Notes under the pieces: model-generated
What the model was told of the DNA's origin: nothing
What the model saw: only the letters and a program-made list of their open reading frames with translations
The model's database searches: none
Made by a program: the position numbers and the translations under genes
DNA from: an uncultured Bacillota bacterium
Lineage (GTDB): Bacteria > Bacillota_I > Bacilli_A > RFN20 > CAG-288
DNA length: 64,000 nucleotides
Reading direction: 5' to 3'
NCBI GenBank assembly: GCA_949300365.1
Contig: CASGEC010000003.1
Span: 53,585-117,584, forward strand
Shown here: piece by piece, positions 3,376-23,825 of the stretch
Position numbering within the stretch: position 1 is the first letter of the stretch
Layout of the letters: each line of letters opens with the position of its first letter

Positions 3376-6084
3376 CTAGACGTCCTTCTTCAGAAGAAGC
3401 TGATGCGGCGTCTTAAGAAGGGTCAAGGCCAGAGGAAGAAGGACAAAGAGCGTGACAAGAAGATAGGTCGCAAGGATGGCAAGGACATGGACATATAGCG
3501 GTGTCGATAGATTCCACAGGAGGAAAAGAAGAACGCTAAAGAAGACGTAGGGAAGGACAAAGAAGAGCGTCACCCTTCCGAGGACATCCAGAAGGTAGTG
3601 GACAAGGATCGCTCTCCTTTCCAATCCCAGGGCACGGTAGATGGCGATGACGTTCTCGTCCTGGGAAAGCCTCGTCCTGAAGAAGATGGCATAGAGCGTC
3701 AGAAGGAAGGCCATCACGACAAGGATAGCGACATAGAAGAGATCGATATCCCGGGTGTCGACGGCTTTGTCGAAGTATTCCTGCGCCCGGATGGTCTGAA
3801 TCCTGGGATAGTTCTCTTTCAGATAGGCGATCGTCTTTTCGGCATCCTGGCAGCAGAAGCGGAAGTAAAGGCCGCTGGAGCCATAAAGCTGGGACCAGGA
3901 AAAGCCATAGCCATCGGAAAAGCCGATAAGAAGCGGAAGGACAAAGTCGTCCGTCAGAAGGGAAGGAAGATCGCCCTCTCCGGTGAAATAGCCTTGGACC
4001 AGGATTTCACGGGAATAGGAAGAAGAATCCAGGACAGGGAACTTTTCGCTATCTGCCTTGAAGGAACCATAGAGATCCTTGGAAAGATAGACACCGATCT
4101 GATCTTCTTCCAAGGAAGTCGATAAAGTATCGACATAGGTAAGATCCGGATAGCTTCCTTTCCCTAGGACAGGAATGGCATTCCCGCCCTGAAGGAGGCC
4201 CGAAAAGAAGCTCTCCACAAGATTCGTGGCCAGTTTCTGAGGGACATAGAGAACCTTCTTTCCCTTGTCTTCGGGATAGAGCGTATCGGCAAGGGAGCTC
4301 TTGAAGTTGAGAGGGATATTGATGGGATTGATGAATCCGGAATAAAGAGGCATCTCCTTGCGGAAGATATCCGAACCGAAGGCCGTCTCTTCTTCGCCAC
4401 CAGGATCGGAAGAGGAAAGGATGCGGATGGAAAGGTCGGAGAGAGCAAAGCTTGCTTCCGGATCCATGCTTCTGGACAAGGCCGAAAGGAAGAAGACATC
4501 CTTGGAATCAAGTCCGGCAAAGTAGATCTTCCCTATCGAGGTATCGCCTTCGATGATGCCCTTGATCGTATAGTCCTTCTTCTTGCCATCGATCCCATAG
4601 AAATGCCACTTTGTCCCGATGACCTTGTCATAGTCCTCCGCCTTGAAGGAGGCAAGAAGGTTCTTGGCAAAGGACTTGTCGATGAGGATATCGCCATATC
4701 CCAAGGAGGAGAAGGAAAGGGAGGAAGGAAGAAGGGAGACCTCGCTTTGGGAGACGCACTCCAAGGAAAGGAAACCGGAATCATAGGACATATCCTGGGG
4801 AGAAGAAAGGCCAAAAGGCGGTTCCAGGACCTCAAAGTCCGTTGGTTGGATCACGGCCGAGACAACGCTGGGAGAGAGAATGCCCGAATCCGGATCCTCC
4901 ATGAGTTCAAGATAGCCGTCGATCTCAGTCGCCTGATTGTTGTCGCTCAAGAGGCCGACCTGCCTTGTCTTAGAGAAATCATAGAGAATCGATCCCATGC
5001 GCGACTCATACATCTGGAAACGCATGCCGAGGCACAGCGGGATGATGATGGCAAGAAGAAGGGAGATGATGACAAGGATCCTGTTTCCCTTGCGACTCAT
5101 CATGTTCTTGAAGAGGGCCTTGTGGAAGAGCCTGTCCTTCCTTGTGGAATCATCAAAGCCTATGGTATCAAAGTTGATACTTGGTGACATTTCCTGTTGT
5201 TCTTTCGTGTTTTCGACAGGCCTTATCTCTTCCTTGACGACCTCGAATCCTTCCGGAAGATGGATGTAGGTCTTCCCATCCTTCTGAAGGATGGTGATCC
5301 TGTCTTTTGTCGTCTCTTTCCTATCCTGATAGAGCGTGACGTCGATCGATCCGATCGTGCCCTCCGTTTTCGCCAGGGGGACATCCTTAGGAAGGGAGAG
5401 GACGTTCTTTTCCTTTCCGGGGACTTGCTCCTCCTGGATCTTGCCATCACAGATCCGATAGAGGACATCGGCAAAGGCGTGGGCCAGGTTTTCGTTGTGG
5501 CTGACGACAAGGACGAGGATATCCGCACTGAGGCCCTTGAGGATCCTCATGACGTTCTCGCCGTTCTTGCTGTCGAGATTTCCGGTCGGTTCATCGGCAA
5601 GGAGGATCTTGGGCTTACTGGCAATGGCCCTTGCGATAGCAACCCTCTGCTTCTGTCCCAGAGAGAGCTGTCCGGCCTTCCTTCTCTTGTAGAGAGAGAG
5701 GGAGACGGCCTTCAAGGCGCTATCGGCCCTCTTCCGGACTTCTTCCTTGTCGTCGATTCCGCATATGCTCAGGCCTTGGCGGATGTTCTCGAAGACGGTC
5801 GATTCCTCGTCGAGGTAGAAGTCCTGGAAGACATAGCCGATGTTTGCCCTTCGAAAGGCGTCCAGGTTGTGATGATTGACCTTTCCCAGGCTTCCATAGT
5901 CGATCGTCCCTTCGTAGCTATCCAGTCCTCCCACGAGGTTAAGAAGGGTGCTCTTTCCGCTTCCGGACTTGCCAAGGAGAAAGACCATGCCCTTGTCGGG
6001 AAGAACAAGGGAGACATCATCCAGGGCCTTGAGGCTTTCCTTGCCGTTCTTAAAGCTCTTCGTGACATGTTCGAGGGTGATCAT
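3376..6084 (-). CDS. ABC transporter ATPase fused to FtsX/MacB-type permease
   Basis: Walker A GKSGSGKS, signature LSLGQ, Walker B ILLADEPT; one TM, large ectodomain, three C-terminal TMs with IAIYRALG. Confidence 0.9.
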   Translation of the reverse strand: MITLEHVTKSFKNGKESLKALDDVSLVLPDKGMVFLLGKSGSGKSTLLNLVGGLDSYEGTIDYGSLGKVNHHNLDAFRRANIGYVFQDFYLDEESTVFENIRQGLSICGIDDKEEVRKRADSALKAVSLSLYKRRKAGQLSLGQKQRVAIARAIASKPKILLADEPTGNLDSKNGENVMRILKGLSADILVLVVSHNENLAHAFADVLYRICDGKIQEEQVPGKEKNVLSLPKDVPLAKTEGTIGSIDVTLYQDRKETTKDRITILQKDGKTYIHLPEGFEVVKEEIRPVENTKEQQEMSPSINFDTIGFDDSTRKDRLFHKALFKNMMSRKGNRILVIISLLLAIIIPLCLGMRFQMYESRMGSILYDFSKTRQVGLLSDNNQATEIDGYLELMEDPDSGILSPSVVSAVIQPTDFEVLEPPFGLSSPQDMSYDSGFLSLECVSQSEVSLLPSSLSFSSLGYGDILIDKSFAKNLLASFKAEDYDKVIGTKWHFYGIDGKKKDYTIKGIIEGDTSIGKIYFAGLDSKDVFFLSALSRSMDPEASFALSDLSIRILSSSDPGGEEETAFGSDIFRKEMPLYSGFINPINIPLNFKSSLADTLYPEDKGKKVLYVPQKLATNLVESFFSGLLQGGNAIPVLGKGSYPDLTYVDTLSTSLEEDQIGVYLSKDLYGSFKADSEKFPVLDSSSYSREILVQGYFTGEGDLPSLLTDDFVLPLLIGFSDGYGFSWSQLYGSSGLYFRFCCQDAEKTIAYLKENYPRIQTIRAQEYFDKAVDTRDIDLFYVAILVVMAFLLTLYAIFFRTRLSQDENVIAIYRALGLERRAILVHYLLDVLGRVTLFFVLPYVFFSVLLFLLWNLSTPLYVHVLAILATYLLVTLFVLLPLALTLLKTPHQLLLKKDV

Positions 6085-8510
6085 CTTTGGCCTCCATTGT
6101 CCTTGAGGATGCTATTGAGGGTGCGCTTCTTTTCCTTGCCATAGAAGCGAAGAAGAAGCAGGGCACCAAAGAGGAGAAGGAGGAAGAAGCCAGCGACAAA
6201 TTGCGCTGGCCGGATAAAGCCGGGAAGGACCGCGTTGAGATAAAGGCAGACGATGATGGAAAGGACGATATAGGTCAAAGTCATCGGCAGAAGGACGATG
6301 ACGCTGCGGAAAAGGAAGAGGGACCTTCTGGGATAGCCGAGGGTCGTCAAAACGCCGAAGTCGGCATTGTAGCGCTTGAGGATGGCCTTCAGGACAGGAT
6401 AGGTGACAAAGAAGAAGACGAAAAGAAGGACGAAGACGAGGAAGGTGATAGTGATGGCCGAGAAGCAGTACTGGACATAGTCCATGGAGGTCGGCTCTTC
6501 CCCGACCCAATACCGGTAATCGGAAGGATAGGCAAGATAGCCTTCCTTTTGCAGTTCCTGATAGCCATTTTTGCAGGCTTCGGCATTGGGGTAGTAGACC
6601 GTTTCAAGGGCATGGGAACGGACAAGAAGAAGGGCAAGGAAAGGTGTCTGTGTTTCCGCGGGGATCCTTATCTGGATGGTGTCTTCCGGAATCGTGCTCC
6701 AGTAGATGCTTCCGGAGACGTTCTTCTCATCCCCCGGTGTCCTAAAAAGGCTTTCCATGTCCAGAAGATCCGCAAACAAGAAGAGGATTTCCTTAAGGGA
6801 CATCGATATGCCATTGAAGGAGACCATGATCTCCTCTTCCTTTCCCGCCCAGGGATCGGAAAGGGCAAGAAACGGGCTCATCTTTCCGACCGTAGAAGAG
6901 ACGCCATAGCCGGAAAGGGAAAGGCTGAATTCCCTTCCGAGGTATGTGGCCTGAAAGGCCGTCTCCGTTTGGATATCCATGGGAAGGGTAAGGTCAAGGC
7001 CTGAGCCCATGACGTTGCTTATAAGCATGGCCTTGAAGGACTTCTCGACTTCCTTGCTGATCCTTTCGGCTGTGACAAGCGGGAAAAAGACCATCACCGC
7101 GTTATCGCCGATATCGCCATGTCCGATACCGAAAAGGGGCAGGGAATCGACATAGTCGGACAGTTCCTTTTCGTATTCCGGAATACCCTCCAAGGTCATA
7201 TCCGAGGCCAAGGAAAGGATCGGATAGTAGGAAGGATCAAACCGGCTTTCTTTGCCAAGATAGTCCTTCAGGAAGGAGATGGCTTCCTTTTGGTAATCCA
7301 GGGAGATGTTGTCGTCGCTAAAGAGGACATAGAAGCCTTCCTCATCCTTTCTATCGCCATAGGAAAGCCAGCTCTTTTCCGGGACGCCGACGGAGAGGGA
7401 GACTTTATGGCGGCCAACGGAATGGAGATTGTCTCCGACTTCCTGTAAGCCCGGCCTGAGGAAGAAATCCACATAGGGAAGATAGGAAACGGACTGATAG
7501 GCCATGGCGCCTTGTGGTTTCTCTTCGGGAAGCGGGCTATCCTCCTTTCCAAGAAGATAGAGCATGTTGGGATTGCCCTTCTCAAAGGCTTTCGGATGAT
7601 AGCGATTGTATATCGCTGTCAAACCGGTCTCGAAGGTATCGGCCGTATAGGTGCCAGCCAAGGTGATACCAATCGTGGCACAGGTCAGAAGAAGGACGGA
7701 AAGGCACATCAAGGCAAGCTTCTTGGGGGCGGAGAAGATCAAGGAAAGGCAGGAGAGAAGAAGGGCGGAGAAGGAATTCTTCTTTCCCCTTTCCTTTGTC
7801 TCCTTAGTAGTATCCGAAACATTTCTCTCCCCGAGCCTTGTATCCGAAAGAAGGCGGCCGTTTTCAAGGACAATATGCCGATTGCAGAGCTTTTCGACGG
7901 ATTCATAGTCATGGGTCACATAAAGGATGAGACGGTTTTCCTTGATCTTGGCGATGAGGTCGATGATTTCCTTTCCGGTCTTGGAGTCGATGTTTCCCGT
8001 TGGCTCGTCAAAGGCGATGATCGGGCTATCCAAGGCCAAGGCCCTGGCGATGACGACGCGCTGCCTTTCGCCTCCGGAGAGACGGACGACTTTCTCCCGC
8101 ATTCTCTTTTCCAGACCGCATTCCTTCAAGGAGGATTCGGCCCTCTTCATGGCTTCCTTCCTTTTGTAGCCCTTGTTGACAAGGGAGATGACGAGGTTTT
8201 CCCGGGCGCTGAGATTGGGAATGAGGTTGTATTCCTGGAAGACGAAGGAGACATAGTCGCGGCGGAAAGAAAGGAGATCGTCCTCGGAGAAATCCGCCGT
8301 GCTCTTGCCTTCAAAGAGGATATCGCCCTCGTCATAGTCATCCATCAACGTGATGACATTGAGGAGGGTCGTCTTTCCCGATCCGGACTCGCCCGTAATG
8401 GCGACGAATTCGCCCCGCTGGAAAGAGAGCGAGACATCATCCAGTCCCTTGGCGGCATTCTTTCCCTGGGAATAGAATTTCGAGACATGGTCCAATTGGA
8501 TGAGCGCCAT
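6081..8510 (-). CDS. ABC transporter ATPase fused to FtsX/MacB-type permease
   Basis: GESGSGKT, LSGGE, FDEPT; C-terminal FGVLTTLGY permease motif; likely start MALIQL at 8510 (ORF extends to 8528); 4-bp overlap with the next gene. Confidence 0.9.
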   Translation of the reverse strand: MALIQLDHVSKFYSQGKNAAKGLDDVSLSFQRGEFVAITGESGSGKTTLLNVITLMDDYDEGDILFEGKSTADFSEDDLLSFRRDYVSFVFQEYNLIPNLSARENLVISLVNKGYKRKEAMKRAESSLKECGLEKRMREKVVRLSGGERQRVVIARALALDSPIIAFDEPTGNIDSKTGKEIIDLIAKIKENRLILYVTHDYESVEKLCNRHIVLENGRLLSDTRLGERNVSDTTKETKERGKKNSFSALLLSCLSLIFSAPKKLALMCLSVLLLTCATIGITLAGTYTADTFETGLTAIYNRYHPKAFEKGNPNMLYLLGKEDSPLPEEKPQGAMAYQSVSYLPYVDFFLRPGLQEVGDNLHSVGRHKVSLSVGVPEKSWLSYGDRKDEEGFYVLFSDDNISLDYQKEAISFLKDYLGKESRFDPSYYPILSLASDMTLEGIPEYEKELSDYVDSLPLFGIGHGDIGDNAVMVFFPLVTAERISKEVEKSFKAMLISNVMGSGLDLTLPMDIQTETAFQATYLGREFSLSLSGYGVSSTVGKMSPFLALSDPWAGKEEEIMVSFNGISMSLKEILFLFADLLDMESLFRTPGDEKNVSGSIYWSTIPEDTIQIRIPAETQTPFLALLLVRSHALETVYYPNAEACKNGYQELQKEGYLAYPSDYRYWVGEEPTSMDYVQYCFSAITITFLVFVLLFVFFFVTYPVLKAILKRYNADFGVLTTLGYPRRSLFLFRSVIVLLPMTLTYIVLSIIVCLYLNAVLPGFIRPAQFVAGFFLLLLFGALLLLRFYGKEKKRTLNSILKDNGGQR

Positions 8511-8809
8511 AAAACCCCTCCTTTCCATAAGGCCATTATATTACGAAAAGAGCAATACCAATAAGAAAGCGGAACAAAAAGACCATGGCCATAATCTTGC
8601 CAAGGACAGATCAGCCCTACCTGGAAGTTATAAGACAGGGGAGAGGTTTCCTTCCTTTTCCTTTGCCTTCAACAGGACAGTCGGTCTTGTTCCGCAGTCA
8701 AACAAGCACCAATCTTTTTGCTTCTTTGGAATATGCCTATTTAAGAGATATGCGAAACTTACTTCTTCTTTGAATCCAGTATCTTTCTTTTGAGAACAAT
8801 ATACCTATT

Positions 8810-11800
8810 TTATTCCTTCGCCAGCCTTTGGATCTTTTGATTGATGTCCAGGACCATCTTGATATCCGCCTTGAGCCATTGGCGGTCGAGGGTGTAGAGG
8901 CCATTGGCTTCGGTTTCGCAGTCGCTAAGCTGAGTATAGACTAGGCCGTTGAGGTTTCCGTTCTGGATCTGCTTATAGAAGCCTTCGTAGAGCTTTCGAT
9001 AGCGCGTGAGGAAAGCCTCCTTGCTCTTGCAGACATGGTGGCCATAGACCTTGGGATAGAAGTAGTGGCCTTTGATTTTCAAGGAGGCACCACCGATCTC
9101 AGTCAGGACATAGGGCCGCTCCTTGTTTCTTCTGGGGATATGGGGAAGGGTATAGCTGTGGATGGAGAAGAGATCGGATTTTGGGGTATCAAGCCATCCG
9201 GATGCCGTATCGTAGAGGAAGTGGGGATACTCGCCCTTGAGGATGGAATAGAGCTTCTCGGGATCAAACTCGCCCCAGGCCTCGTTGAAGATGGTGATGA
9301 CGATGACGGCCGGGTTGTTGACAAGGTCCTGGATGATAGAAAGGCTTTCCTGGATGAACTTCTTCCGGCCTCTTTCGTCCTTTCTTCCATAGCCTCTCTC
9401 CGTCAAAAAGAAGCTGTGGTTGAAAAGAATGACGCTGGCCCTTGGGAAGACGACATTGAAGAAGGGAATGTGCTCACCGCCGTTGGGGATGTCCTGGATG
9501 AGGAGGATTCCCCTCTTTGCCGCTTCGTAGTAGAACCTCTCCTCTTCCACCTTGACGTGCATCCTGAGACAGTTGAAGCCCAGAAGCTTGGCGTTTTCGA
9601 TGTCCTTCCGGAAGAGATCTTCGTCTTCTGCCGTCAATCCGCCGAAGGGATAGTATCCCTGGTCCAATAGGCCGTTGAGGAAGACCTTCCTGCCATTGAG
9701 ATAGATGTGCTTCTTGCCATCCTTTCCCATCCCGACTTCGATCTTCCTGACGCCGAAGTAGGAGGTCACGAGATCGTCCTTACTCCTTACGGAGACGGGA
9801 TAGAGATAGGGATCTTCCAAAGACCAGGGCCGGAAGGGAAGGAGCTTTATCTTCTCTTCCTTATTGGTAGTCAGGGTCCTTTCCATGTCCCCGATCTGGA
9901 TCTTGACGGGGAAGTCCTTCTCTGCCCGGACAAGGACATGGACGCATTTCTCGTCGGCATCCGGCCTTAGGCTCAAGCCGAGGATGGCTTCCTCTCCAGA
10001 AGCTTCCAGATAGACGCTTTTGAAGATCCCGCTTGAGGAGGAATAGAACCAGCCGTTTGGCGTAAGCCTTTGCTTTCCCGTCATCCGGAAGGAGGAGTCG
10101 GTCAGGTCCCTGACGCGGACGACAAGGTCAAAAGAGGGTTTCTTAAGATAGGGTCGGATATCGACAGAAAAGCGGGTATAGCCGCCATCGTGGTGTCTGA
10201 CCTTGTTTCCATCGACATAGACATCGGCAATCTGGTCGACACCCTCAAAGAAGAGGAAGACATGTTCCCGATAGAACCTTTCCTCCAGATCGACCTGGCG
10301 GTGGTAGAAGAGATACTCGTCCTTGGAGAGGAGGCGGTTGACGCCGCTCATCGGGGATTCGATGGCAAAGGGGACATGGATCTTGCCTTCATAGGTCAAA
10401 GGAATAGTCTCATCCTTTGTTATGGCATAGTCCCACTCGCCTTCCAGGGAGAGGAAATCCTTGCGGGCAAAGGAGGGACGGGGATGACTCTCCCTATGGA
10501 CTTTTGGAAGGGGCATGTCGGGAAGGAGGTCCTTGAGCCTGTAGCCTTCGTTCTTGTCATAGCGTGTGCTCTTCTTCAGGAAGAAATAGGGAATGAAGAT
10601 CAGAAGGAGAAGGACAAGGCCGACAAGATAGCCGTATTTGGAAGGAAGAGAGGCCAGGACGCCGTATTCATTGGCATAAGACTCTCCGGTCATCTGGTTG
10701 AGGGCATTGCCGATAAAGGGGCCGACACACATCGGAAGGGCGACGACAAAGACCATCCTCACGCCCATGAAGCTTCCTTCCTTGCCTTTGGGGATATAGT
10801 CCCGGACAAGGGAATTGAGGATGGTCGGCATGGCGACATAGCCAAGGATCATGACCATGCCGGAGATGGCCGTATAGGCATAGCGACCGACATCATTCTC
10901 GATATCCGGGGCAAAGAAGAGGAGAAGAAGGCCAAGGGCAAGGATGATGGTCGTCGGGACGATCATCCTCGTCTTTCCCTTGCGGTCGGAAAGAAAGCCG
11001 ATAAGGACGCTTAAAACGGAGCCGAGGATCAGGGCGACGGCCATGACGATGGCAAATGGGGTCAGGAAGGAAGCGCCGCTATTGGGAACATGGGCCGTCC
11101 TTTCCACATAGACCATGAGATAGGGGAAGAAGACCTGGGTGGCAACGCCATAGACGAAATAGCAAAGAAGGACAAGGTAGAGGTTCTTGTTTTCCCTTAC
11201 CGTCTTGGGAAGGAAACCCTCGGCCAGGATAGGAAGAAGCTTCCTTGTGCTTTTTTCCTCTTTCTCTTCCTTGGGAATGAGGAAGAAGGAAACAAGGCCG
11301 ACCAGGACGACGATGCCACCGATGATATAGAAGAAGAGATCCCACTGTCCGGAAGCCGTCAGGCCATTGAGGGCGACGAAGATGATCAGCATCGCAATCA
11401 GGGGAAGGATCGAAAGGACACCTTCGACCTTTCCTCTGTTCTCGTCCTTGACGTTCTTGGTCACGTAGGAATTGAAGGCCGCATCGTTTGCCGTCGATCC
11501 CAAGAAGGTCATGATGCAGTCGATGACGATGACAAGGATCGCGGCCGTCATGGCACTCATGCTGATTGGTATGATGCTTTGGGCATTGCCGACATCGACA
11601 AGGCCAAAGGAAGCCGTGGCAATGCCCCACAAGACATAGCCCAAAGCGATGAAGATCTTCCTCTTCCTTACCTTGTCCGTCAAGGAACCCATGAAGATGG
11701 TCGTGATCGTTGCCGTGATGGCGCTTAAGGCCGTCGTCCAGGCCACCATCGGGGAAGGATCGAATCCTTGGCCCGTGGTCGAGAGATAGTAAAGATAGGT

Positions 11801-11905
11801 GTTGAGATACATGTTCTCGATCGACCAGGCAAACTGTCCGGCAAGACCGACGAAAACGAAAACAAGCCACTGCCGAAGCGTCACCTTCGTATTGGTCTTT
11901 TCCAT
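8810..11905 (-). CDS. MFS transporter fused to glycoside hydrolase family 2
   Basis: Residues ~1-445: about 12 TMs with motif A (GSLTDKVRKRK; GFLSDRKGK). Remainder GH2: HPRP, LEGEW, FEGVD, HDGGY, LDQGYY, FNEAWG, LTEIGG, ETEANGL. Confidence 0.9.
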   Translation of the reverse strand: MEKTNTKVTLRQWLVFVFVGLAGQFAWSIENMYLNTYLYYLSTTGQGFDPSPMVAWTTALSAITATITTIFMGSLTDKVRKRKIFIALGYVLWGIATASFGLVDVGNAQSIIPISMSAMTAAILVIVIDCIMTFLGSTANDAAFNSYVTKNVKDENRGKVEGVLSILPLIAMLIIFVALNGLTASGQWDLFFYIIGGIVVLVGLVSFFLIPKEEKEEKSTRKLLPILAEGFLPKTVRENKNLYLVLLCYFVYGVATQVFFPYLMVYVERTAHVPNSGASFLTPFAIVMAVALILGSVLSVLIGFLSDRKGKTRMIVPTTIILALGLLLLFFAPDIENDVGRYAYTAISGMVMILGYVAMPTILNSLVRDYIPKGKEGSFMGVRMVFVVALPMCVGPFIGNALNQMTGESYANEYGVLASLPSKYGYLVGLVLLLLIFIPYFFLKKSTRYDKNEGYRLKDLLPDMPLPKVHRESHPRPSFARKDFLSLEGEWDYAITKDETIPLTYEGKIHVPFAIESPMSGVNRLLSKDEYLFYHRQVDLEERFYREHVFLFFEGVDQIADVYVDGNKVRHHDGGYTRFSVDIRPYLKKPSFDLVVRVRDLTDSSFRMTGKQRLTPNGWFYSSSSGIFKSVYLEASGEEAILGLSLRPDADEKCVHVLVRAEKDFPVKIQIGDMERTLTTNKEEKIKLLPFRPWSLEDPYLYPVSVRSKDDLVTSYFGVRKIEVGMGKDGKKHIYLNGRKVFLNGLLDQGYYPFGGLTAEDEDLFRKDIENAKLLGFNCLRMHVKVEEERFYYEAAKRGILLIQDIPNGGEHIPFFNVVFPRASVILFNHSFFLTERGYGRKDERGRKKFIQESLSIIQDLVNNPAVIVITIFNEAWGEFDPEKLYSILKGEYPHFLYDTASGWLDTPKSDLFSIHSYTLPHIPRRNKERPYVLTEIGGASLKIKGHYFYPKVYGHHVCKSKEAFLTRYRKLYEGFYKQIQNGNLNGLVYTQLSDCETEANGLYTLDRQWLKADIKMVLDINQKIQRLAKE

Positions 11906-12054
11906 GGTTGCAGTCCTCTCTTACGGGAATTATAGCCGATTTCAGGACGGACGAGGTTCAAAAATCCAATCGCCGACGATCATCGGGAAATCCCTTTGGA
12001 AAGAACAAGGGGTCCAGGGGTTCTTTTTTGCAAAGGCGGAGAGCCGGCAAGGAT

Positions 12055-12083
12055 TTGCTTTTTTCCTTCTTTCCCTCTATCCT
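12055..12083 (+). promoter_or_regulatory. Putative sigma-70 promoter, probably giving a leaderless mRNA
   Basis: TTGCTT-17 bp-TATCCT; ATG 7 nt downstream; no Shine-Dalgarno. Confidence 0.45.
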
Positions 12084-12090
12084 AGTCGCT

Positions 12091-12495
12091 ATGAAACGTT
12101 TTTATTTCCTGGACGGCCCTGTGCCGCAGTTTCTCCTCCGCGTTGCCTTTTCCGTCCTCATCGGACTGGGTATCTTCCTTGGCATGTATCTTTCGACCGA
12201 CCGCACATTGATAAACGCCTGCAACAGTTGCTTCGTTCCTTTCTGCGTCCTTCTCTTTATCGGCCTCTGTTCCCTTGGAAACTACTTTGGCTGCTTCGAT
12301 TTGGGACTCTATGGCATGACATCGATCCTCTTTGCCATGAGAAAGGGAGCCATCCGTCCCTATGAAGACCTCATCGACTACAAGAACAAGAAGAAGATAA
12401 CCCGACACAGCAATGGCTACTACTTCATCCCTTATCTTGTCTCTTCCCTTTTCTTCCTCGTCCCGGCCATAGTCCTTTTCCTTCTTTGCCAATAA
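12091..12495 (+). CDS. DUF3899-like membrane protein
   Basis: Three TMs, G.FD...YG motif, YEDLIDYK; lies just upstream of the opp operon; ATG 12091. Confidence 0.65.
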   Translation: MKRFYFLDGPVPQFLLRVAFSVLIGLGIFLGMYLSTDRTLINACNSCFVPFCVLLFIGLCSLGNYFGCFDLGLYGMTSILFAMRKGAIRPYEDLIDYKNKKKITRHSNGYYFIPYLVSSLFFLVPAIVLFLLCQ

Positions 12496-12600
12496 GGAAA
12501 AGATCTCTTTTTCCTTGTTCCTCAAGGCATTGGAAGAAAGGAAGAGAAAGTACGTTTGAAAAGCGAAAAGCCTGCGAATTTATTGAATTCGAGCACAAAT

Positions 12601-12626
12601 AAAGAAAGTTGGAAACCGCTTTCTTT
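12601..12626 (+). terminator. Probable intrinsic terminator
   Basis: AAAGAAAGTTGG-AAA-CCGCTTTCTTT hairpin downstream of the DUF3899-like gene. Confidence 0.4.
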
Positions 12627-12910
12627 CAACTTTTGAAAAAGAATCCCATTGCTTTCTCGCAATATCCGGCAAAATTGCATTTTCTTTCAAAGAAAAGTTG
12701 TAAGGGCTTACTTCGTACTTTTCAAAAATCATCCAAAGAAGCCTGTATTGTCTCATAAATGTCCTTGTTTTCGGCGTTTTTTCTCTTTTTTGATTGTTCT
12801 TTCCTGCTTTGAAGGACGATTTTTGGAAAATATCTTCGTCTCAATAAGAAGGAATAGGAAAGCTGTCAATTCTGTCTTCTTTTGTCGTTTTTGCCCCTGG
12901 CGAGGAGAGG

Positions 12911-12939
12911 TTGACTCAATTTCGGAAGGCTTCTAGAAT
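12911..12939 (+). promoter_or_regulatory. Sigma-70 promoter of the opp operon
   Basis: TTGACT-17 bp-TAGAAT, 55 nt before the oppA ATG. Confidence 0.7.
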
Positions 12940-12994
12940 TGTCGCATTCTCAAGGCATTCGTTAGAAGCCTTGTGAGAAAGCGAGGCATATAGC

Positions 12995-15394
12995 ATGAAA
13001 AGATCCGTTCTACTTACTTCCATCGTCGCCTTGTCTGCCTTCTTCTCTCTGACATCCTGCAACAATGCAGGCGGCGATACGACTACTCCTCCTGTTGGAG
13101 GAACTACCACCCCCGGTGGTGATGACACTCCTGTTGAGCCCTTTGATGGTTGGGCCGATGAAGACGCTGCCCACGTTGCCCAAGAATACAAGGGTGTTGC
13201 CAATTCTGGCGAGGAAGGCATTAACCTTTCGGGTATCTCTGCTTCCGAAAAGGCATCACTTTTGGGTGATGTCGAGGCTTGGGCTCTGAAGAACCACCTC
13301 CTTGGCATTCCTCTCTTCGGCGATGGCGGATGGACACTTCTGAGCACAAGAGTCCAGCCGGCCCTTAACGAATATCTTGCCAACTATGGCTTTGGTATCT
13401 CCCGTGAAGGTAAGATCACCAGTGACATGACGGCCGAGCAAGAGCCGAATCCCGAATATCGTTCCTATTATCACAGCCCTTGGAATCCTTCGAATGCCGA
13501 CGGCAAACTGAATCCGTTTGATGCCAACAACAGCGCTGCCTCCTCCCTCAACGCAAACAATTTGATGGGTCTTTATTCTTCGAGGCTGAAGAAGGATGGC
13601 GAAGGCGGCTACCTTAATGAATGGGAGTGGTATCCTGCTCTTGCCGAAGATGTTCCTGAACCTGTCGACTGGGATGAAGAAACCAATACCGCAACGACAT
13701 GGAGAATCAAGGTCCGTACTACTGGCGTGAAATACACCACGGCCTCCACGGCAACAGTCAATGGCGTTGATCTTTCGAGGTTCAATGGCCAGGAGGTTTC
13801 TGCCAAGGATTATCTCTATAGCTATCATCTAATGCTGAACGGCAACAACCAGTATTCCTATACTCCTCAGTACATCACGGACTTTGTCGGAGCCAGCGAG
13901 TATTACGAGGCTTCCGCCTCAACGCCGGTCGGCTCTGATGCGGATAACGCACTTTTCGAGAAGGTCGGCATCAAGCTTGTCGATGACGATACCCTCGAGT
14001 TCCATTTCACTTCCACGATGACCAAGAACACGGTCATGATGCAACTCAGTAGCCATGGCCCGACAAACGAAGAGTTCTTCAAGGCTGTCACGGGTTGGGG
14101 AACGGATCACTATGATCCGAAGGCCTACGGATCCAACTTGGTCTTGGACGGAAAGACCTACACCCCTGCCGATACCCTCTTAAGTTGTGGCCCTTACACG
14201 CTGACAAAATATGATGTCGGAACCGGTAGTGACATGGAGATTGTCTACAAGCGGAACGATGATTGGATCGAAAGACAGCTTGAAAACAATGACAAGTATG
14301 AAATCTATGCCATCAAGGGCTATGTCTACAAAGTAAATTCGGCCTACGAGCAGTCTACGACCAGCGTCTATAACGACTATTTGGCCGGAAAACTTGACGA
14401 ATCTTCTATTCCTCTTGATAGAAGAGCGGACTGGGAAGGCGACAAGCCTGGCAAGTACATCACCGGAAACTACACCATCACCGCGCTCCAGATCAATTCC
14501 TGCACTTCCGACAGATGGCAGGAAGTCTTTGGCCCTGAAGGAACCAACTGGGAAAAACAACAGGACTACACCTACGATGAGGCAACAGCCAATGACTACA
14601 CCATCAAGCCGGTCATGTCCAATTCGGACTTCCTCGATGGTCTCTACTTCTCCATCAACCGTCAGGAACTTGCGGATACCTTGATGTACGGTGCTTCCAG
14701 CGACTGGATTGGTGAAGCCTACATGATGGACATCGACTCCCTTGTCTCCTATGATGCCACTGCCGCACATGCCAGAGCCGTCAAAGATTGGTCACCGGAT
14801 ACGCTCGGCTATAGTACTGCCATTGCCCAACAAAAATTCGAATCGGCAATGGATCAGTTGACGGAATCCGGAGCCTACACCCCTGGAACGGCTTCCGATC
14901 CTACCGTCATCAAGATCAGCATGCAGCTTGCTTCTCAGTCGCAAATTGATAACTGGGGCAACCGTGTCAAGTCCTACATTGAAAAAGCATTCAACACGAC
15001 CACCATGCTCAATAAGGGCTATAAGTTGGAAGTTGAGTTGCCTGCTGCTCCGGCAAATGGTGCAAGCGAGTGCTACACAATCCTTGCCAGTGGTTGCTAC
15101 GACCTCTGCTGGGGTGGAATCAGCGGCGGTACGGCCGATGCCTTCGGCATGATTGGCTGCTACCTCGATAGTTGGGACAACGGACTCCAGATGGGCGTCG
15201 GTACCCCCACGACTACCGATACCGGCAAAGGCGGAGTTATCTACGATGGTTATTCTTACTCCTTGCAGGGTATCTTCTATGCCATCGAGTGGGGTGGCCC
15301 GGTCATCATCGAAAATGGTGTTATGGTTGGTATTCCTGAGGAAGACGAGCCGGCTGAAGATTCTGGCGAAGACGATGAAGTCGCTGGCGACTAA
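12995..15394 (+). CDS. oppA: Oligopeptide ABC transporter substrate-binding lipoprotein
   Basis: Lipobox LTSC; family-5 SBP motifs (VSAKDYLYSY, LSCGPY, LYFSINRQ); first gene of the oppBCDF run. Confidence 0.85.
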   Translation: MKRSVLLTSIVALSAFFSLTSCNNAGGDTTTPPVGGTTTPGGDDTPVEPFDGWADEDAAHVAQEYKGVANSGEEGINLSGISASEKASLLGDVEAWALKNHLLGIPLFGDGGWTLLSTRVQPALNEYLANYGFGISREGKITSDMTAEQEPNPEYRSYYHSPWNPSNADGKLNPFDANNSAASSLNANNLMGLYSSRLKKDGEGGYLNEWEWYPALAEDVPEPVDWDEETNTATTWRIKVRTTGVKYTTASTATVNGVDLSRFNGQEVSAKDYLYSYHLMLNGNNQYSYTPQYITDFVGASEYYEASASTPVGSDADNALFEKVGIKLVDDDTLEFHFTSTMTKNTVMMQLSSHGPTNEEFFKAVTGWGTDHYDPKAYGSNLVLDGKTYTPADTLLSCGPYTLTKYDVGTGSDMEIVYKRNDDWIERQLENNDKYEIYAIKGYVYKVNSAYEQSTTSVYNDYLAGKLDESSIPLDRRADWEGDKPGKYITGNYTITALQINSCTSDRWQEVFGPEGTNWEKQQDYTYDEATANDYTIKPVMSNSDFLDGLYFSINRQELADTLMYGASSDWIGEAYMMDIDSLVSYDATAAHARAVKDWSPDTLGYSTAIAQQKFESAMDQLTESGAYTPGTASDPTVIKISMQLASQSQIDNWGNRVKSYIEKAFNTTTMLNKGYKLEVELPAAPANGASECYTILASGCYDLCWGGISGGTADAFGMIGCYLDSWDNGLQMGVGTPTTTDTGKGGVIYDGYSYSLQGIFYAIEWGGPVIIENGVMVGIPEEDEPAEDSGEDDEVAGD

Positions 15395-15427
15395 CGCTAG
15401 GTACGACGATAAGAAATTAGGATAGTA

Positions 15428-15459
15428 AAAGGGAAGCACCCATTTCGGTGCTTCCCTTT
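15428..15459 (+). terminator. Strong hairpin between oppA and oppB (partial terminator or mRNA stabiliser)
   Basis: AAAGGGAAGCACC-loop-GGTGCTTCCCTTT, 13-bp perfect stem. Confidence 0.7.
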
Positions 15460-15495
15460 GGCTGTCTATGGCGTCTTCGAAATCATGGAGGAAAT

Positions 15496-16536
15496 ATGGT
15501 TAAATATGTAATCCAAAGAGTGGTCCTGGCCTTTATAGCCTTGTTCATCATCCTTTCCTTGACCTTTATTCTCATGAAAACCTTGCCAATGGAAGTTGGT
15601 GGCATGACCCCCGAAGCAAAGCTGACATTCCTCATGAATGAGTACAACAAAGGCTATCTCATCATGAGTACCTCCTTAGACCCGGCTTTAGGTAACCCTA
15701 TGTCATCGGCAACATTAATGGGAAGCACGACCACCTACTATTTCTGGCAGAAACCCATCATGGAGCAATATGGCAAATGGGTTGTCGATGTCTTTACCAA
15801 GTGGGATTGGGGAACCTCCTACGTGATCGAAGTCAACAAGCCTTGCTTCGATGTCATCCTCAACGGCCTTCCCGCAACAATTTCCGTCAATGCCGTTTCC
15901 GTCATCATCGCCGTTCCGGTCGGTATCCTTCTTGGAATCTGGGCTGCCCTTAAAAAGGACAAGCCTACAGACACCGCCATCTCGACGATCATCATGATCT
16001 TGATTTCCGTTCCTTCCTTCGTCCTTATTACATTCCTCATCATGATTTTGGGATACAACCTGAAGTTGCTTCCGACGGAATGGCCAAAAAGTTACTATCC
16101 GATGAACCAAAAGGTCTTGGGATTCATCATCCCTGTCATCGCCTTGTCCTTGGGATCCATTTGTGGATACTGCCGCTTCACAAGAGCCGAACTCTGCGAT
16201 GTTCTTTCTTCCGACTATCTGCTTCTGGCGCGAACCAAGGGTCTTACCAAGAGACAGGCCGTCATGAGACATGCCTTGCGCAACGCCATGGTTCCTATCC
16301 TTCCTTCCATTCTTGCCGAAATCATCGGCCTTCTCTCTGGATCGATGATTGTCGAGTCTATCTACAACATTCCCGGAATCGGCTCCATCTTCATCAATGC
16401 CCTGAATAAGAAGGACTACAACCTCTTGATGGTCGATATGGCGGTCTTCACGACAATCGGCCTTCTTGCCGGCATTGTCCTTGATCTCTCCTATGGATTC
16501 CTTGATCCTCGGATCAGAATGGGGGCCAAGAAATGA
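15496..16536 (+). CDS. oppB: Oligopeptide ABC permease
   Basis: EAA loop ARTKGL..HALRNA; C-terminal LDPRIR; GGAGG RBS before ATG 15496. Confidence 0.92.
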   Translation: MVKYVIQRVVLAFIALFIILSLTFILMKTLPMEVGGMTPEAKLTFLMNEYNKGYLIMSTSLDPALGNPMSSATLMGSTTTYYFWQKPIMEQYGKWVVDVFTKWDWGTSYVIEVNKPCFDVILNGLPATISVNAVSVIIAVPVGILLGIWAALKKDKPTDTAISTIIMILISVPSFVLITFLIMILGYNLKLLPTEWPKSYYPMNQKVLGFIIPVIALSLGSICGYCRFTRAELCDVLSSDYLLLARTKGLTKRQAVMRHALRNAMVPILPSILAEIIGLLSGSMIVESIYNIPGIGSIFINALNKKDYNLLMVDMAVFTTIGLLAGIVLDLSYGFLDPRIRMGAKK

Positions 16537-18413
16537 CAAACGATAAAGAACTCTTCGTCTATAAGGACAGCTCACATCATGAGCACAGCATCGCCCTGAA
16601 GGAGGATGCCTTCACTTTCCAGCACCAAAGCAAGAACATCAAGGATGTCTCCTTCAAGGGAAAGCCGACGACATTCCTTCGCGATTGCTTCAGACGTTTC
16701 TGCAAGAGCCGGGCTTCCATCACGGCAAGTATCATCTTGGGATTCCTCATCCTGCTTGCCATCATCCTTCCTTTTGCCCTTCCCTATGATGTCACGGGAG
16801 GAACGACTTCCGGAATGGAATTCCTTCCCCCGAAGCTCTTCCCGACAGGAACCGGTTTTTGGGATGGCACCAAGTCCTATAAGGACATCATCTTCGACAA
16901 GGATACGAATCTTCCCCAAGGCGATTTCGATGAATCCTCCATTGTCAAGGAATCCATCAAGACCTACCCGGGTACGATCGACAACACGCCGAACAAGTTC
17001 GCAACCGGAGGCTACATCCGTATCGCCTCTTCTGGAACTTCCGGCGACTATGTCTGGTCGGACAAGACATTCACCCTTTCCGACACTACGAACCTGACTC
17101 TCACCTATGAAGTCCAGCCGCAGATCATGGAAAACTACTTGCCGGTCCCCTACTACATCTCCGTTGCGGCAGGTGAAAACGAATATTTCGTCGTCAAGAA
17201 CTCTCGGCAGTATGGTGAACAGACAGTCGATGTCGGAAGCTTCCTCAAGGAACAGGGTGTCACCTCCTTGGAAAGCGCCAGAATCCGTGTTGGCATCAAT
17301 GGTATCGGCCAGGAGGAGATGATCGGTGTCTTCTTAAAGAGCCTCGTCCTCAAAAACGGGACGACGACAATGACTGATGTCTCCATGATCGATGCCAACA
17401 AAGCCCTCTTGGACAAGACATGGAAGTATTCCTCCGGTGGTCTCTCCGGCCTTGCCGGTGCCACGATCACCTATTGTTCCTTCACCTATAATCCGTATCA
17501 GAAAGCCTACGGCAATTACACCTTTGTCTATAGCAAAAACGATATTCAGGACATGATTGACCAAGGGCTGTGCGAATATGACTTTGCTGTCGGTGAGTCT
17601 TCTTTCAAGGCCTTGACGGATACGTGTCCTATCATATCCGTCGACAAGCAAAGCGAACGAACGGCCGCTGGTATCACCGTCATCGAAATCACGGCAACCG
17701 TCAGTCGTTACAAGCAAAAAGGCTTCGCCAACATGCCCTACCACATCTTCGGAACCGATTCCCAGGGCCGTGACATGCTGAAATATGTCTTCGAGGGCCT
17801 TCGAAACTCCTTGGGTCTTGCCGTCGTCATCTCCGCCATCTGCTTCCTCTGCGGCTTAATCTGGGGTGCCATCGAAGGTTACTTCGGTGGAATGGTCGAT
17901 ATGACGATGGAAAGAATCGTCGATGTCCTTGCCAATATTCCTTCGATTATTCTGATTACGATCTGCGTCCTGCACCTCGGCCAGACCTTCTCCGTCTTCA
18001 TGCTTGCCATGTGCATGACGGGCTGGATCGGTTCGGCAGGTATCACCAGAACCCAATTCTACCGATTCAAGCGAAGGGAATACGTCTTGGCATCCCGATC
18101 CTTGGGTGCCTCGGACACAAGACTCATCGTCAACCACATTCTCCCCAATGCCATGGGTACGATCGTCACCTCTTCCGTTCTGATGATTCCGTCCGTCATC
18201 TTCACCGAAGCGACCATCGCCTACTTGGGTATCGGCCTTGCGGGTATGTCCTCGTTGGGTGTCATTCTCAACAATAACCAGAATTTCATCGGAAGCAACC
18301 AATACCTATTGATCTTCCCTTCCCTCGTCCTTGCCATCATGCTGATCTGCTTCAACCTCTTCGGAAACGGCCTCCGCGATGCCCTCAACCCGTCCCTGAA
18401 AGGAAGTGAATGA
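16533..18413 (+). CDS. oppC: Oligopeptide ABC permease with large extracytoplasmic insertion
   Basis: FGTDSQGRD, EYVLASRSLGAS, HILPN, GLRDALNP; long insert after TM1. Confidence 0.92.
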   Translation: MTNDKELFVYKDSSHHEHSIALKEDAFTFQHQSKNIKDVSFKGKPTTFLRDCFRRFCKSRASITASIILGFLILLAIILPFALPYDVTGGTTSGMEFLPPKLFPTGTGFWDGTKSYKDIIFDKDTNLPQGDFDESSIVKESIKTYPGTIDNTPNKFATGGYIRIASSGTSGDYVWSDKTFTLSDTTNLTLTYEVQPQIMENYLPVPYYISVAAGENEYFVVKNSRQYGEQTVDVGSFLKEQGVTSLESARIRVGINGIGQEEMIGVFLKSLVLKNGTTTMTDVSMIDANKALLDKTWKYSSGGLSGLAGATITYCSFTYNPYQKAYGNYTFVYSKNDIQDMIDQGLCEYDFAVGESSFKALTDTCPIISVDKQSERTAAGITVIEITATVSRYKQKGFANMPYHIFGTDSQGRDMLKYVFEGLRNSLGLAVVISAICFLCGLIWGAIEGYFGGMVDMTMERIVDVLANIPSIILITICVLHLGQTFSVFMLAMCMTGWIGSAGITRTQFYRFKRREYVLASRSLGASDTRLIVNHILPNAMGTIVTSSVLMIPSVIFTEATIAYLGIGLAGMSSLGVILNNNQNFIGSNQYLLIFPSLVLAIMLICFNLFGNGLRDALNPSLKGSE

Positions 18414-18414
18414 T

Positions 18415-23763: not shown

Positions 23764-23825
23764 TTCTGTCACCTCAATATATATAGGATAACGGATAAAA
23801 TTCCTCGGAAGAAAGACATTTCCAT

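Follow-up and report, generated by a model that had tools for sequence, protein, structure and literature searches.

What does a polypeptide do that carries an MFS transporter and a GH2 glycosidase on one chain, and how did such a chain arise? The question is raised by a gene of a small-genome gut bacterium, located in the window (the whole stretch of 64,000 nucleotides that was analysed). The reading that we favour, and hold to be fairly probable, is that of an import-and-hydrolyse unit with a tethered GH2 domain, which cleaves with retention, probably acts on galactofuranosides and was derived by fusion from an operon of overlapping genes. As a probable cation symporter, the N-terminal 12-TM MFS domain would bring in a small glycoside or an oligosaccharide. 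The GH2 domain, which a stretch of about 28 residues connects to TM12 at its cytoplasmic end, would split off the sugar at the non-reducing terminus, with retention and by means of two Glu residues (E875 as acid/base, E936 as nucleophile). Since the GH2 domain is assigned to the furanosidase branch of the family (group III), the substrate would most likely be a beta-D-galactofuranoside, with an alpha-L-arabinofuranoside as second choice, and the freed galactose would enter the Leloir pathway (galK-galT) of the host genome. What is observed here are the architecture, the topology, the conservation of the two halves and the fused/split distribution with its tree, whereas we infer the direction of transport, the identity of the substrate and any kinetic gain of the fusion; substrate channelling, as originally suggested, may occur. 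The gene is organised as follows:

8810..11905, minus strand: whole fused gene, 1031 codons plus stop with an ATG start (ORF listing)
10571..11905, minus strand: MFS transporter domain, residues 1-445 (Pfam, AlphaFold2, charge bias)
10487..10570, minus strand: tether, residues 446-473 (STRYDKNEGYRLKDLLPDMPLPKVHRES), from the end of TM12 to HPRP
8813..10486, minus strand: GH2 glycosidase assigned to group III, residues 474-1031, with beta-sandwich, Ig-like domain and TIM barrel

The fused ORF is a real gene. The ORF at 8810..11905 contains no internal stops, and the ORF listing and Pfam bear out the original prediction of a single uninterrupted 1031-aa MFS-GH2 chain, of which the protein collection contains an identical copy. 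The junction had been singled out for a check of read support, and no indels were found where the contigs of three further runs (X2, X3 and X4) span it; runs X1-X4 are metagenomes of one study, X1 being a possible source of the window DNA. A 30.6-kb contig of X3 (depth 104) spans 8811-12000 with 23 substitutions and no gaps, a 2498-nt contig of X2 spans 9408-11905 with 20 substitutions and no gaps, and a 584-nt contig of X4 spans 10271-10854 without any difference. The 23 substitutions between the strain variant and the window gene comprise 15 synonymous and 8 non-synonymous changes and introduce no stops; this ratio, together with the invariant GH2 and MFS residues described below, indicates that both halves are under constraint.

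Residues 40-396 of the N-terminal half match Pfam MFS_1 with 118 bits (cut-off 33.4; E 5.2e-34). In the AlphaFold2 model (mean pLDDT 87.8), 12 long helices precede residue 447, arranged as two six-helix halves (residues 10-209 and 240-447) with a long central cytoplasmic loop (210-239) between them; the full-length model has a pTM of 0.69, the tether being fairly confident. MFS motif A, G-x-x-x-D-R/K-x-G-R-R/K, lies in the TM2-TM3 loop. In the window protein it is present in two copies, GSLTDKVRKRK (residues 73-83, nt 11657-11689) and GFLSDRKGKTR (residues 303-313, nt 10967-10999), and with this motif and 12 TM helices the protein belongs to the MFS. E30, N31, D77, D129, D141, D307 and R383 are each kept in 99/99 fused homologues. 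The MFS loops contain 33 Lys and Arg residues on the side of the N-terminus and 3 on the opposite one, and both MFS termini and the GH2 domain are therefore placed in the cytoplasm, as had been expected of the MFS C-terminus. Foldseek relates the MFS half to many MFS structures with probability 1.00, and the fold is that of a generic MFS protein; the best query-normalised TM-scores are those of MelB (0.69-0.72), with similar E-values across MFS families. When the MFS half by itself was compared with PDB sequences, nothing matched at E <= 0.01, and PF13347, the profile of the GPH / MFS_2 glycoside-pentoside-hexuronide symporters, did not match the window protein at E <= 0.001; a precomputed PF13347 hit is present in many relatives and in 41-69% of the members of the nearest Atlas clusters.

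The tether comprises 28 residues (446-473) and bridges the end of TM12 and the conserved HPRP with which the GH2 fold begins; the 10-residue blocks between 441 and 480 have pLDDT values of 76, 86, 85 and 92. The second part of the tether, NEGYRLKDL..., was once the N-terminal head of the GH2 protein, which in split relatives starts MSQSNEGYLLKDL... (L003) or alike. TM12 and PRP are 20-44 residues apart (median 31) in the 99 fused proteins.

The C-terminal half contains Pfam Glyco_hydro_2_N at residues 530-633 (51.8 bits against a cut-off of 28) and Glyco_hydro_2_C at 731-891, the latter with 20.3 bits and thus 0.7 under its cut-off of 21. In phmmer searches against the PDB the best matches were 7sf2 (E 1.3e-76), 9j6n (3.3e-66) and 7xyr (6.8e-51), with the best true GUS at 5.3e-17, and Foldseek gave the same order by target-normalised TM-score (7sf2 0.88, 9j6n/9j6m 0.85-0.87, 7xyr 0.83, GUS <= 0.75). 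The structures 9J6M and 7XYR belong to GH2 group III, as subfamilies GH2_18 and GH2_19, respectively, and the activities characterised in this group are beta-D-galactofuranosidase and alpha-L-arabinofuranosidase (PMC12243196). By sequence and fold, the window GH2 is thus assigned to group III and is of furanosidase type. In sequence it resembles 9J6N (GH2_18) more closely than 7XYR (GH2_19). About 10% of GH2_19 proteins are secreted (PMC12243196), and the cytoplasmic location of the window GH2 fits this subfamily.

AlphaFold2, Pfam and the motifs FNEAWG (residues 873-878, nt 9272-9289) and LTEIGG (residues 934-939, nt 9089-9106) agree with the original prediction that an MFS domain of about 12 TM helices is joined to a GH2 domain with both catalytic Glu intact. 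In ORF1110, the galactofuranosidase of 9J6M/9J6N, galactofuranose (Galf) is contacted by K212, Y228, H401, N463, Y551 and E594, with E464 and E530 as catalytic residues (PMC11627007). The equivalent positions of the window protein, along with T991, are given here with their conservation among 99 fused homologues of 33-87% identity:

9281..9283, minus strand: E875, predicted acid/base catalyst (NE motif with N874), aligned with ORF1110 E464; 99/99
9098..9100, minus strand: E936, predicted nucleophile (LTEIGG), aligned with ORF1110 E530; 99/99
8909..8911, minus strand: E999, equivalent of ORF1110 E594 by alignment; 99/99
10073..10075, minus strand: K611, equivalent of ORF1110 K212; 99/99
10043..10045, minus strand: Y621, equivalent of ORF1110 Y228; 99/99
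9557..9559, minus strand: H783, equivalent of ORF1110 H401; 99/99
8933..8935, minus strand: T991; 99/99
9038..9040, minus strand: H956, at the position of ORF1110 Y551, the sole differing sugar-contact residue

N874 aligns with ORF1110 N463 and is likewise kept in 99/99, so that 7/8 of the sugar-contact and catalytic residues of ORF1110 are invariant. E594 of ORF1110 binds O5 and O6 of galactofuranose, and its mutation to alanine strongly lowers the Galf-ase activity; the O6 ligands are the equivalents of K611 and Y621, while Y551 contacts the ring and O5 (PMC11627007). The Y551 column holds Y in 51 of the fused homologues, H in 46, and L and Q in one each; H956 would be the equivalent of Y551, in a part of the alignment that is loop-like. 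In group III the stacking Trp at the -1 subsite is replaced by a conserved Thr (PMC12243196), to which T991 probably corresponds.

Uncharacterised fusions of this kind had been suspected to sit in databases, and they do: among the listed homologues, 114/120 align over 97% or more of the protein, and where names are given these are just "MFS transporter" or "MFS family permease". All of the closest relatives, at 87, 75, 59 and 53% identity, are fused, and other species of the genus have two overlapping genes. The original prediction had named two genes in all close relatives as a result that would refute it, and this is not what the relatives show. The 25 genomes of the window's genus comprise 9 with the fused form, 10 with the split form, 2 with GH2 only and 4 with none. 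Of the loci from species genomes, 19/76 carry the halves next to each other, in a single ORF at 6 loci and in two ORFs at 13, which speaks for a functional link between them. In the two-ORF loci the GH2 start mostly overlaps the MFS stop by 4-17 nt, and at the MFS stop the GH2 frame stays open in 11/12 of the split loci (L010 left out) and, in the window's genus, in 10/10; one frameshift therefore suffices for fusion. A tree of 33 concatenated MFS-GH2 pairs requires at least four changes between the fused and split states, and a tree in which all 12 fused rows are monophyletic is rejected (delta lnL 497, p-AU 8e-43). On this phylogenetic evidence a single origin of the fusion is rejected in favour of several separate mergers in related bacteria. 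The source would be an ordinary two-gene MFS-GH2 operon with overlapping stop and start, converted several times by a single frameshift.

The gene surroundings give little indication of the substrate. The neighbours of 21 MFS-bearing loci contained no conserved partner, regulator or catabolic gene, and neither did those of 9 stand-alone GH2 loci and three close relatives, so that the substrate cannot be read from context. At the split locus L027 a GH53 galactanase gene is located nearby, and the stand-alone GH2 homologue L049 adjoins a GH127 arabinofuranosidase, which hints at plant arabinogalactan. The genome itself encodes galK and galT side by side, while AraA_N found no match in it (85% completeness). 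Across 41 related genomes, GalK is present in 25/26 with the GH2 or the module against 6/15 without, an association among kin and thus non-independent, GalK being common in sugar-using genomes generally; AraA is present in 2/26 carrier genomes.

The original prediction had drawn an analogy to lacY/lacZ and gusB/gusA, which proved wrong on the type of enzyme, as fold and sequence point to group III and the NCBIfam scores away from LacZ and GusA. That the protein is a LacY/LacZ-like or GusB/GusA-like unit for beta-galactopyranosides or beta-glucuronides is very improbable, even though the top-scoring NCBIfam model is a beta-glucuronidase and the depositors' titles of 7SF2 and 7XYR read "beta-galactosidase" and "beta-glucuronidase". 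The beta-glucuronidase equivalog NF007538 has a cut-off of 544 bits and scores 72.4 here; for the LacZ-type models NF052611, NF007666 and NF041100, with cut-offs of 999, 1284 and 2000, the scores are 58.1, 54.9 and 48.1 bits. With scores so far under the equivalog cut-offs, a LacZ- or GusA-like GH2 was rejected. True GUS enzymes also remain behind group III in both searches (E >= 5e-17 against 1e-76, TM-score <= 0.75 against 0.88). GUS enzymes carry an N-x-K carboxylate motif, which is presumably missing from the matching C-terminal stretch of the window GH2. Moreover, the stacking Trp of GUS and beta-galactosidases is T991 here and in 99/99 homologues (PMC12243196). A nearer competitor retains the architecture and mechanism and changes only the substrate, to an alpha-L-arabinofuranoside, i.e. 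arabino-oligosaccharides from plant arabinan, arabinoxylan or arabinogalactan. Group III includes characterised alpha-L-arabinofuranosidases (PMC12243196), Galf and Araf differ only in the C6 hydroxymethyl group (PMC12243196, PMC11627007), His replaces the Y551 equivalent in the window protein and 46/99 homologues, which is a counterpoint to the Galf reading, and the GH53 and GH127 genes near L027 and L049 as well as the metagenomic nature of the sequence-bearing runs point the same way. Against this, E999 and the O6 ligands K611 and Y621 are kept in 99/99 (roles from PMC11627007), and the arabinose side is poorly represented, given the unmatched AraA_N in the 85% complete genome and the scarcity of AraA among carriers, so that we regard this substrate as unlikely. 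A further counterpoint to the galactofuranoside reading is that the nearest structure, 7SF2, is uncharacterised and that 7XYR was called a beta-glucuronidase by its depositors. If the substrate were an arabinofuranoside, the finding would be more ordinary.

Very little credence is given to the idea that the MFS half does not import the substrate of the GH2 half, and serves instead in product export or in recycling of the cell's own Galf glycans, or that the GH2 domain is a non-catalytic appendage. The direction of transport is unreadable from sequence, and the genome encodes UDP-galactopyranose mutase (Glf), so that the bacterium would make Galf glycans of its own. However, catabolic uptake operons have this gene order, in which the permease precedes the hydrolase and its stop overlaps the hydrolase start, and the invariance of the catalytic and sugar-binding residues speaks against a dead GH2 domain. 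The co-occurrence of Glf with the module is weak (19/26 against 7/15; in the 41 genomes, 19 have both, 7 the module only, 7 Glf only and 8 neither), for which reason service to the cell's own Galf glycans was dropped as the main reading.

The preferred reading, a tethered import-and-hydrolyse unit for galactofuranosides, has relatives in several known systems. The beta-D-galactofuranosidase ORF1110 (Streptomyces sp. JHA19; GH2_18; 9J6M/9J6N) has the three-domain GH2 fold in common with the window enzyme, and its catalytic Glu pair, N463, H401, K212, Y228 and E594 are kept. By contrast, ORF1110 is a secreted enzyme that carries a signal peptide and, at its C-terminus, a CBM42-like domain (PMC11627007), whereas the window enzyme is cytoplasmic, lacks a CBM, has a transporter fused to it and bears His at the position of Y551. 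The best match in sequence and fold, 7SF2, is BACCELL_01794 of Bacteroides cellulosilyticus, an uncharacterised group III-like GH2 that aligns through residues 9-583 with window residues 454-1026 (E 1.3e-76) and equals the GH2 half in length; unlike the window protein it is stand-alone and soluble, and with no reported activity it names no substrate. Pairs of permease and glycosidase are textbook: LacY-LacZ, GusB/UidB-GusA/UidA and MelB-MelA each consist of a secondary transporter and a cytoplasmic glycosidase as operon partners. The logic of uptake followed by cleavage is common to these and the window unit, and the split relatives are exactly such two-gene operons, but the window unit differs from LacY-LacZ-type pairs in being one polypeptide with a GH2 domain of the furanosidase-type subgroup and no accompanying regulator gene. 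A parallel for the fusion is LplT-Aas, an MFS transporter and an acyltransferase that are encoded by adjacent genes in many bacteria and by a fused ORF in others; the E. coli proteins form a complex for which substrate tunnelling has been proposed, and the fused forms are likewise described as uncharacterised (PMC11416262). In both systems a cytoplasmic-side enzyme acts on the cargo of an MFS protein and both adjacent and fused forms exist, while the LplT-Aas cargo is a lipid and the enzyme an acyltransferase/acyl-ACP synthetase instead of a glycosidase.

More tentative and rather doubtful is the proposal that the MFS protein and the furanosidase form one physical machine even where separate genes encode them. 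With the enzyme placed at the mouth of the MFS domain on the cytoplasmic side, the glycoside would be cleaved as it emerges, so that hydrolysis would pull uptake ("vectorial hydrolysis," akin to group translocation), and selection for this coupling, beyond the ease of the frameshift, would explain the at least four fusions of the pair. If true, this would be the first dedicated galactofuranoside uptake route; no transporter for galactofuranosides was found in the literature searched. Nor did that literature, with most subscription journals outside its coverage, yield a description of an MFS-glycosidase fusion, and the protein appears to be a natural single-chain permease-glycosidase without published characterisation. 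Galactofuranose is produced by bacteria, fungi and protozoa, and not by mammals. The characterised GH2 galactofuranosidases that a review lists originate from Streptomyces and Aspergillus, and the two from Streptomyces have signal peptides (PMC12290620, PMC11627007). If uncultured gut Bacillota commonly carry a cytoplasmic galactofuranosidase coupled to a transporter, this would suggest that microbial glycans are scavenged in a manner not yet described. Since fused and split forms are matched within one genus, a clean test of the effect of tethering on metabolism is possible.

The fused gene has no adjacent regulator, as originally noted: downstream on the same strand lie two ABC ATPase fusion genes, after a gap of 281 nt, and upstream a small divergent ORF (weak DUF3899 match) and a divergent opp operon. 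An Rfam scan of 8300-13200 returned just a chance microRNA match (E 0.36), and in a scan for consensus promoters and terminators, which did not list the TATAAT site below, sites were no more numerous than in shuffled sequence. Directly upstream of the gene the following was read from the sequence:

11914..11934, minus strand: candidate expression signals, TATAAT at 11929-11934 and GAGAGGA at 11914-11920

GAGAGGA ends 8 nt ahead of the ATG, and the two elements are likely the fused gene's own expression signals.

The MFS and GH2 parts, which the original prediction had placed on one polypeptide, are indeed encoded by a single ORF, and both Pfam domains and both motifs are present in its product:

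Features of the fused gene (window coordinates) and of the window protein (residues)
8810-11905, minus strand: fused MFS-GH2 ORF, 1031 aa, ATG start, no interruption
Residues 40-396: MFS_1 (Pfam, E 5.2e-34)
Residues 530-633: GH2 sugar-binding domain (Pfam)
Residues 873-878: FNEAWG, motif read in the sequence
Residues 934-939: LTEIGG, motif read in the sequence

At 20.3 bits, the match to the GH2 TIM-barrel family is slightly under the Pfam cut-off of 21. An AlphaFold2 model built from an alignment of 99 homologues (mean pLDDT 87.8, pTM 0.69) has twelve long helices, all N-terminal of residue 447, and a three-domain enzyme (beta-sandwich, Ig-like, barrel) C-terminal of residue 480. The positive-inside rule relates Lys/Arg-rich loops to the cytoplasmic side, and the membrane loops on the side of the N-terminus hold 33 Lys and Arg versus 3 on the opposite side, so that both MFS termini and the entire GH2 domain are assigned to the cytoplasm. 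A predicted -10 box and Shine-Dalgarno sequence of the gene's own are plausible by eye; a promoter consensus scan gave no confirmation. The sequence is present in four DNA runs of one study, and the window itself may derive from one of them. At the MFS/GH2 junction, for which the original prediction had named read support as a check, assembled contigs of three runs cross without gaps: a 30.6-kb contig of depth 104 across 8811-12000 with 23 substitutions (X3), a 2.5-kb contig across 9408-11905 with 20 substitutions (X2), and a 584-nt contig across 10271-10854 with zero differences (X4). The 23 strain-variant differences comprise 15 synonymous and 8 non-synonymous changes and no stops, indicating that the frame is retained in a second strain, as would be expected if the gene is functional. 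In the X2 and X3 contigs the match to the window ends right past the stop codon (loose ends before 8811, region 8700-8811), so that strains differ in what lies downstream of the gene.

In a sequence search of solved structures, a small set is far ahead of the rest for the GH2 half, namely 7SF2, an uncharacterised Bacteroides cellulosilyticus protein (E 1.3e-76), the Streptomyces beta-D-galactofuranosidase ORF1110 (9J6N/9J6M, E 3.3e-66) and 7XYR (E 6.8e-51), compared with E 5.3e-17 for the best true beta-glucuronidase (GUS) and 4.9e-11 or worse for beta-galactosidases. Fold comparison gives the same ranking (TM-scores of 0.88, 0.85-0.87 and 0.83, respectively, and at most 0.75 for the others). 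Every NCBIfam equivalog model for GUS and LacZ was missed by a wide margin. A 2025 subdivision of GH2 assigns 9J6M and 7XYR to “group III” (GH2_18, GH2_19), for which it gives beta-D-galactofuranosidase and alpha-L-arabinofuranosidase as characterised activities, describes GH2_19 members as mostly non-secreted, and notes Thr in place of the sugar-stacking Trp (PMC12243196). The catalytic pair E464/E530 of ORF1110 and its sugar ligands K212, Y228, H401, N463, Y551 and E594 (PMC11627007) align with E875/E936 and with K611, Y621, H783, N874, H956 and E999 of the window protein (chain numbering offset of 23, verified on the NE motif). Conservation was assessed among 99 fused homologues of 33-87% identity, taken from 114 full-length matches after 15 had been removed by hand for thinning. 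All mapped sites are invariant except position 956 (Tyr 51, His 46, Leu 1, Gln 1); T991 is likewise invariant. The original interpretation was thus right in outline but not in enzyme type, which is that of a group III GH2, furanosidase type, rather than GUS or LacZ. The genome of the window (1.44 Mb, 85% complete) holds a single group III GH2, the one in the fused gene.

In the MFS half both copies of motif A are present, and E30, N31, D129, D141 and R383 are invariant among the 99 fused homologues. On its own, this half had no match among PDB sequences; its fold is generic MFS, and when normalised to the query the top scores are those to the melibiose permease MelB; the nearest Atlas clusters are stand-alone MFS proteins of 442-445 aa, with 41-69% of members carrying the GPH-type PF13347. 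The window protein may be an uptake-and-cleavage unit, in which the MFS domain would import the substrate and the tethered cytoplasmic enzyme, a putative retaining exo-furanosidase, would then remove the terminal sugar; transport direction, coupling ion, substrate and any channelling are points on which we infer.

As to the sugar, galK and galT are adjacent in the genome of the window, and AraA_N had no match in this 85%-complete sequence. Among 41 related genomes, galactokinase is found in 25 of 26 with the GH2 or module versus 6 of 15 without, AraA in 2 of 26 versus 0 of 15, and UDP-galactopyranose mutase in 19 of 26 versus 7 of 15, counts that are descriptive only, as the genomes are kin. 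They favour galactose over arabinose as the sugar that would be released, making a galactofuranoside the more probable substrate. The mutase gene of the window's own genome (G000:C1:434071-434670, L103; E 6.5e-82) is one of those in 26 of the 41 small genomes, so that surface glycans containing galactofuranose seem common in the lineage.

LacY-LacZ and GusB-GusA are permease and glycosidase pairs of similar logic, from which the window protein differs in its GH2 subgroup and its single chain. The closest parallel in gene structure is LplT-Aas, in which an MFS transporter is paired with a cytoplasmic enzyme; the two genes lie next to each other in many bacteria and are joined in some others, with a complex demonstrated and tunnelling proposed in E. 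coli (PMC11416262). No description of an MFS-glycosidase fusion was found in the full-text literature searched, and a galactofuranosidase review lists GH2 enzymes only from Streptomyces and Aspergillus (PMC12290620). The fusion is an uncharacterised form of a known kind of system, and its significance would rise if the coupling proves physical or the substrate is indeed a galactofuranoside.

The suspicion that similar fusions sit uncharacterised in databases was borne out. Among 120 matches listed of 481 at E <= 0.001 (7999 candidates scored), 114 have at least 97% query coverage and lengths of 986-1096 aa, three are truncated fused forms and three stand-alone GH2 proteins; names, if any, are “MFS transporter” or “MFS family permease” only. 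Clustering at 50% gave 8 full-length fused representatives and 7 junction-crossing fragments among the best 150. In species-representative genomes, 76 loci were surveyed, drawn from the 80 top-ranking of 639 confirmed stretches: both halves are adjacent in 19 (6 as one ORF, 13 as two), MFS stands alone in 2 and GH2 in 55, 6 of which lie too near a contig end for judgement. The GH2 start overlaps the MFS stop by 4-17 nt in 9 of the 13 split loci, including ATGA-type overlaps (L012, L021). The window's genus, counted as 24 species genomes and the genome of the window, has 9 fused, 10 split, 2 GH2-only and 4 empty genomes; its fused copies share 87, 75, 59, 53, 53, 51 and 51% identity, in addition to one N-terminally truncated and the window's own, and overlaps at its split loci, with first-ATG starts assumed, are mostly 14-32 nt. 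The original interpretation should be completed by this fused/split polymorphism. A split (L003, G005:C64) and a fused module (L004, G022:C23) of two species occupy the same site, directly after dnaA-dnaN, the presumed replication origin region, and before a protein of 1034-1288 aa that has no Pfam match, which is followed by an M20 peptidase. Decay is also seen: at the two-ORF locus L010 a frameshift breaks the MFS gene (7956-9352) and leaves GH2 intact, and the fused ORF of L090 (G003:C1) lacks the first ~160 MFS residues.

The origin of the fusion was addressed by an unrooted maximum-likelihood tree of 33 concatenated MFS and GH2 rows, leaving out truncated L090, frameshifted L010, fragmented L054, GH2-only L101 and L102, and L003 and L004 as duplicates of L092 and L088. 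The fused/split state needs four changes, all forced by starred branches, and the fused rows are spread over four parts of the tree, namely a six-row clade with the window, a second clade of four nested among split members of the genus, L006 and L075. Grouping all 12 fused rows is rejected (delta lnL 497, p-AU 8e-43), as is grouping the 10 of the Bacilli clade, a group chosen after the tree was seen (delta lnL 136, p-AU 7e-5). Split is the more widespread state; gains and losses are indistinguishable on an unrooted tree. The head of GH2 in split proteins, e.g. MSQSNEGYLLKDL, corresponds to residues 452-460 of the window protein (NEGYRLKDL), which come directly after its MFS tail. Of the split loci, 11 of 12 in the species survey and 10 of 10 in the genus keep the GH2 frame open through the stop of the MFS gene; in L095 the open stretch of 29 nt includes the GH2 ribosome-binding site and TTG start. 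A single frameshift there would make linker codons out of the ribosome-binding site and spacer, a simple route to fusion.

No conserved neighbour of the module was found among the neighbourhoods of relatives surveyed; its surroundings are housekeeping genes, adjoined only occasionally by a ROK or LacI regulator or GH53, and synteny round the fused gene breaks down even in the closest relatives. In the window, two tandem genes (3376-8528, minus strand; 815 and 902 aa) lie 281 nt downstream, an adjacency kept in relative G015 and not in G021 or G012; each encodes an N-terminal ABC ATPase domain, the remaining 600-700 residues having no Pfam match. Divergent from the fused gene is a small hydrophobic ORF of 134 aa (12091-12495, plus strand) with a weak DUF3899 match below cut-off (E 8e-4). 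An opp-type peptide ABC operon (12995-21511, plus strand), inverted relative to the MFS-GH2 gene in G015, has unusually long components with split ABC_tran matches (OppC 626 aa, OppD 534 aa, OppF 504 aa); its first gene, of 799 aa without Pfam match, probably encodes the binding protein. A GH5 gene (22594-23772, minus strand) is separated by two ORFs without Pfam matches from a GH3 gene with Pfam domains in swapped order:

Features of the GH3 protein (26210-29494, minus strand, 1094 aa; Pfam)
Residues 79-386: Glyco_hydro_3_C
Residues 466-547: Fn3-like
Residues 790-980: Glyco_hydro_3 N-domain

From this order it looks like a circularly permuted enzyme of beta-glucosidase type.
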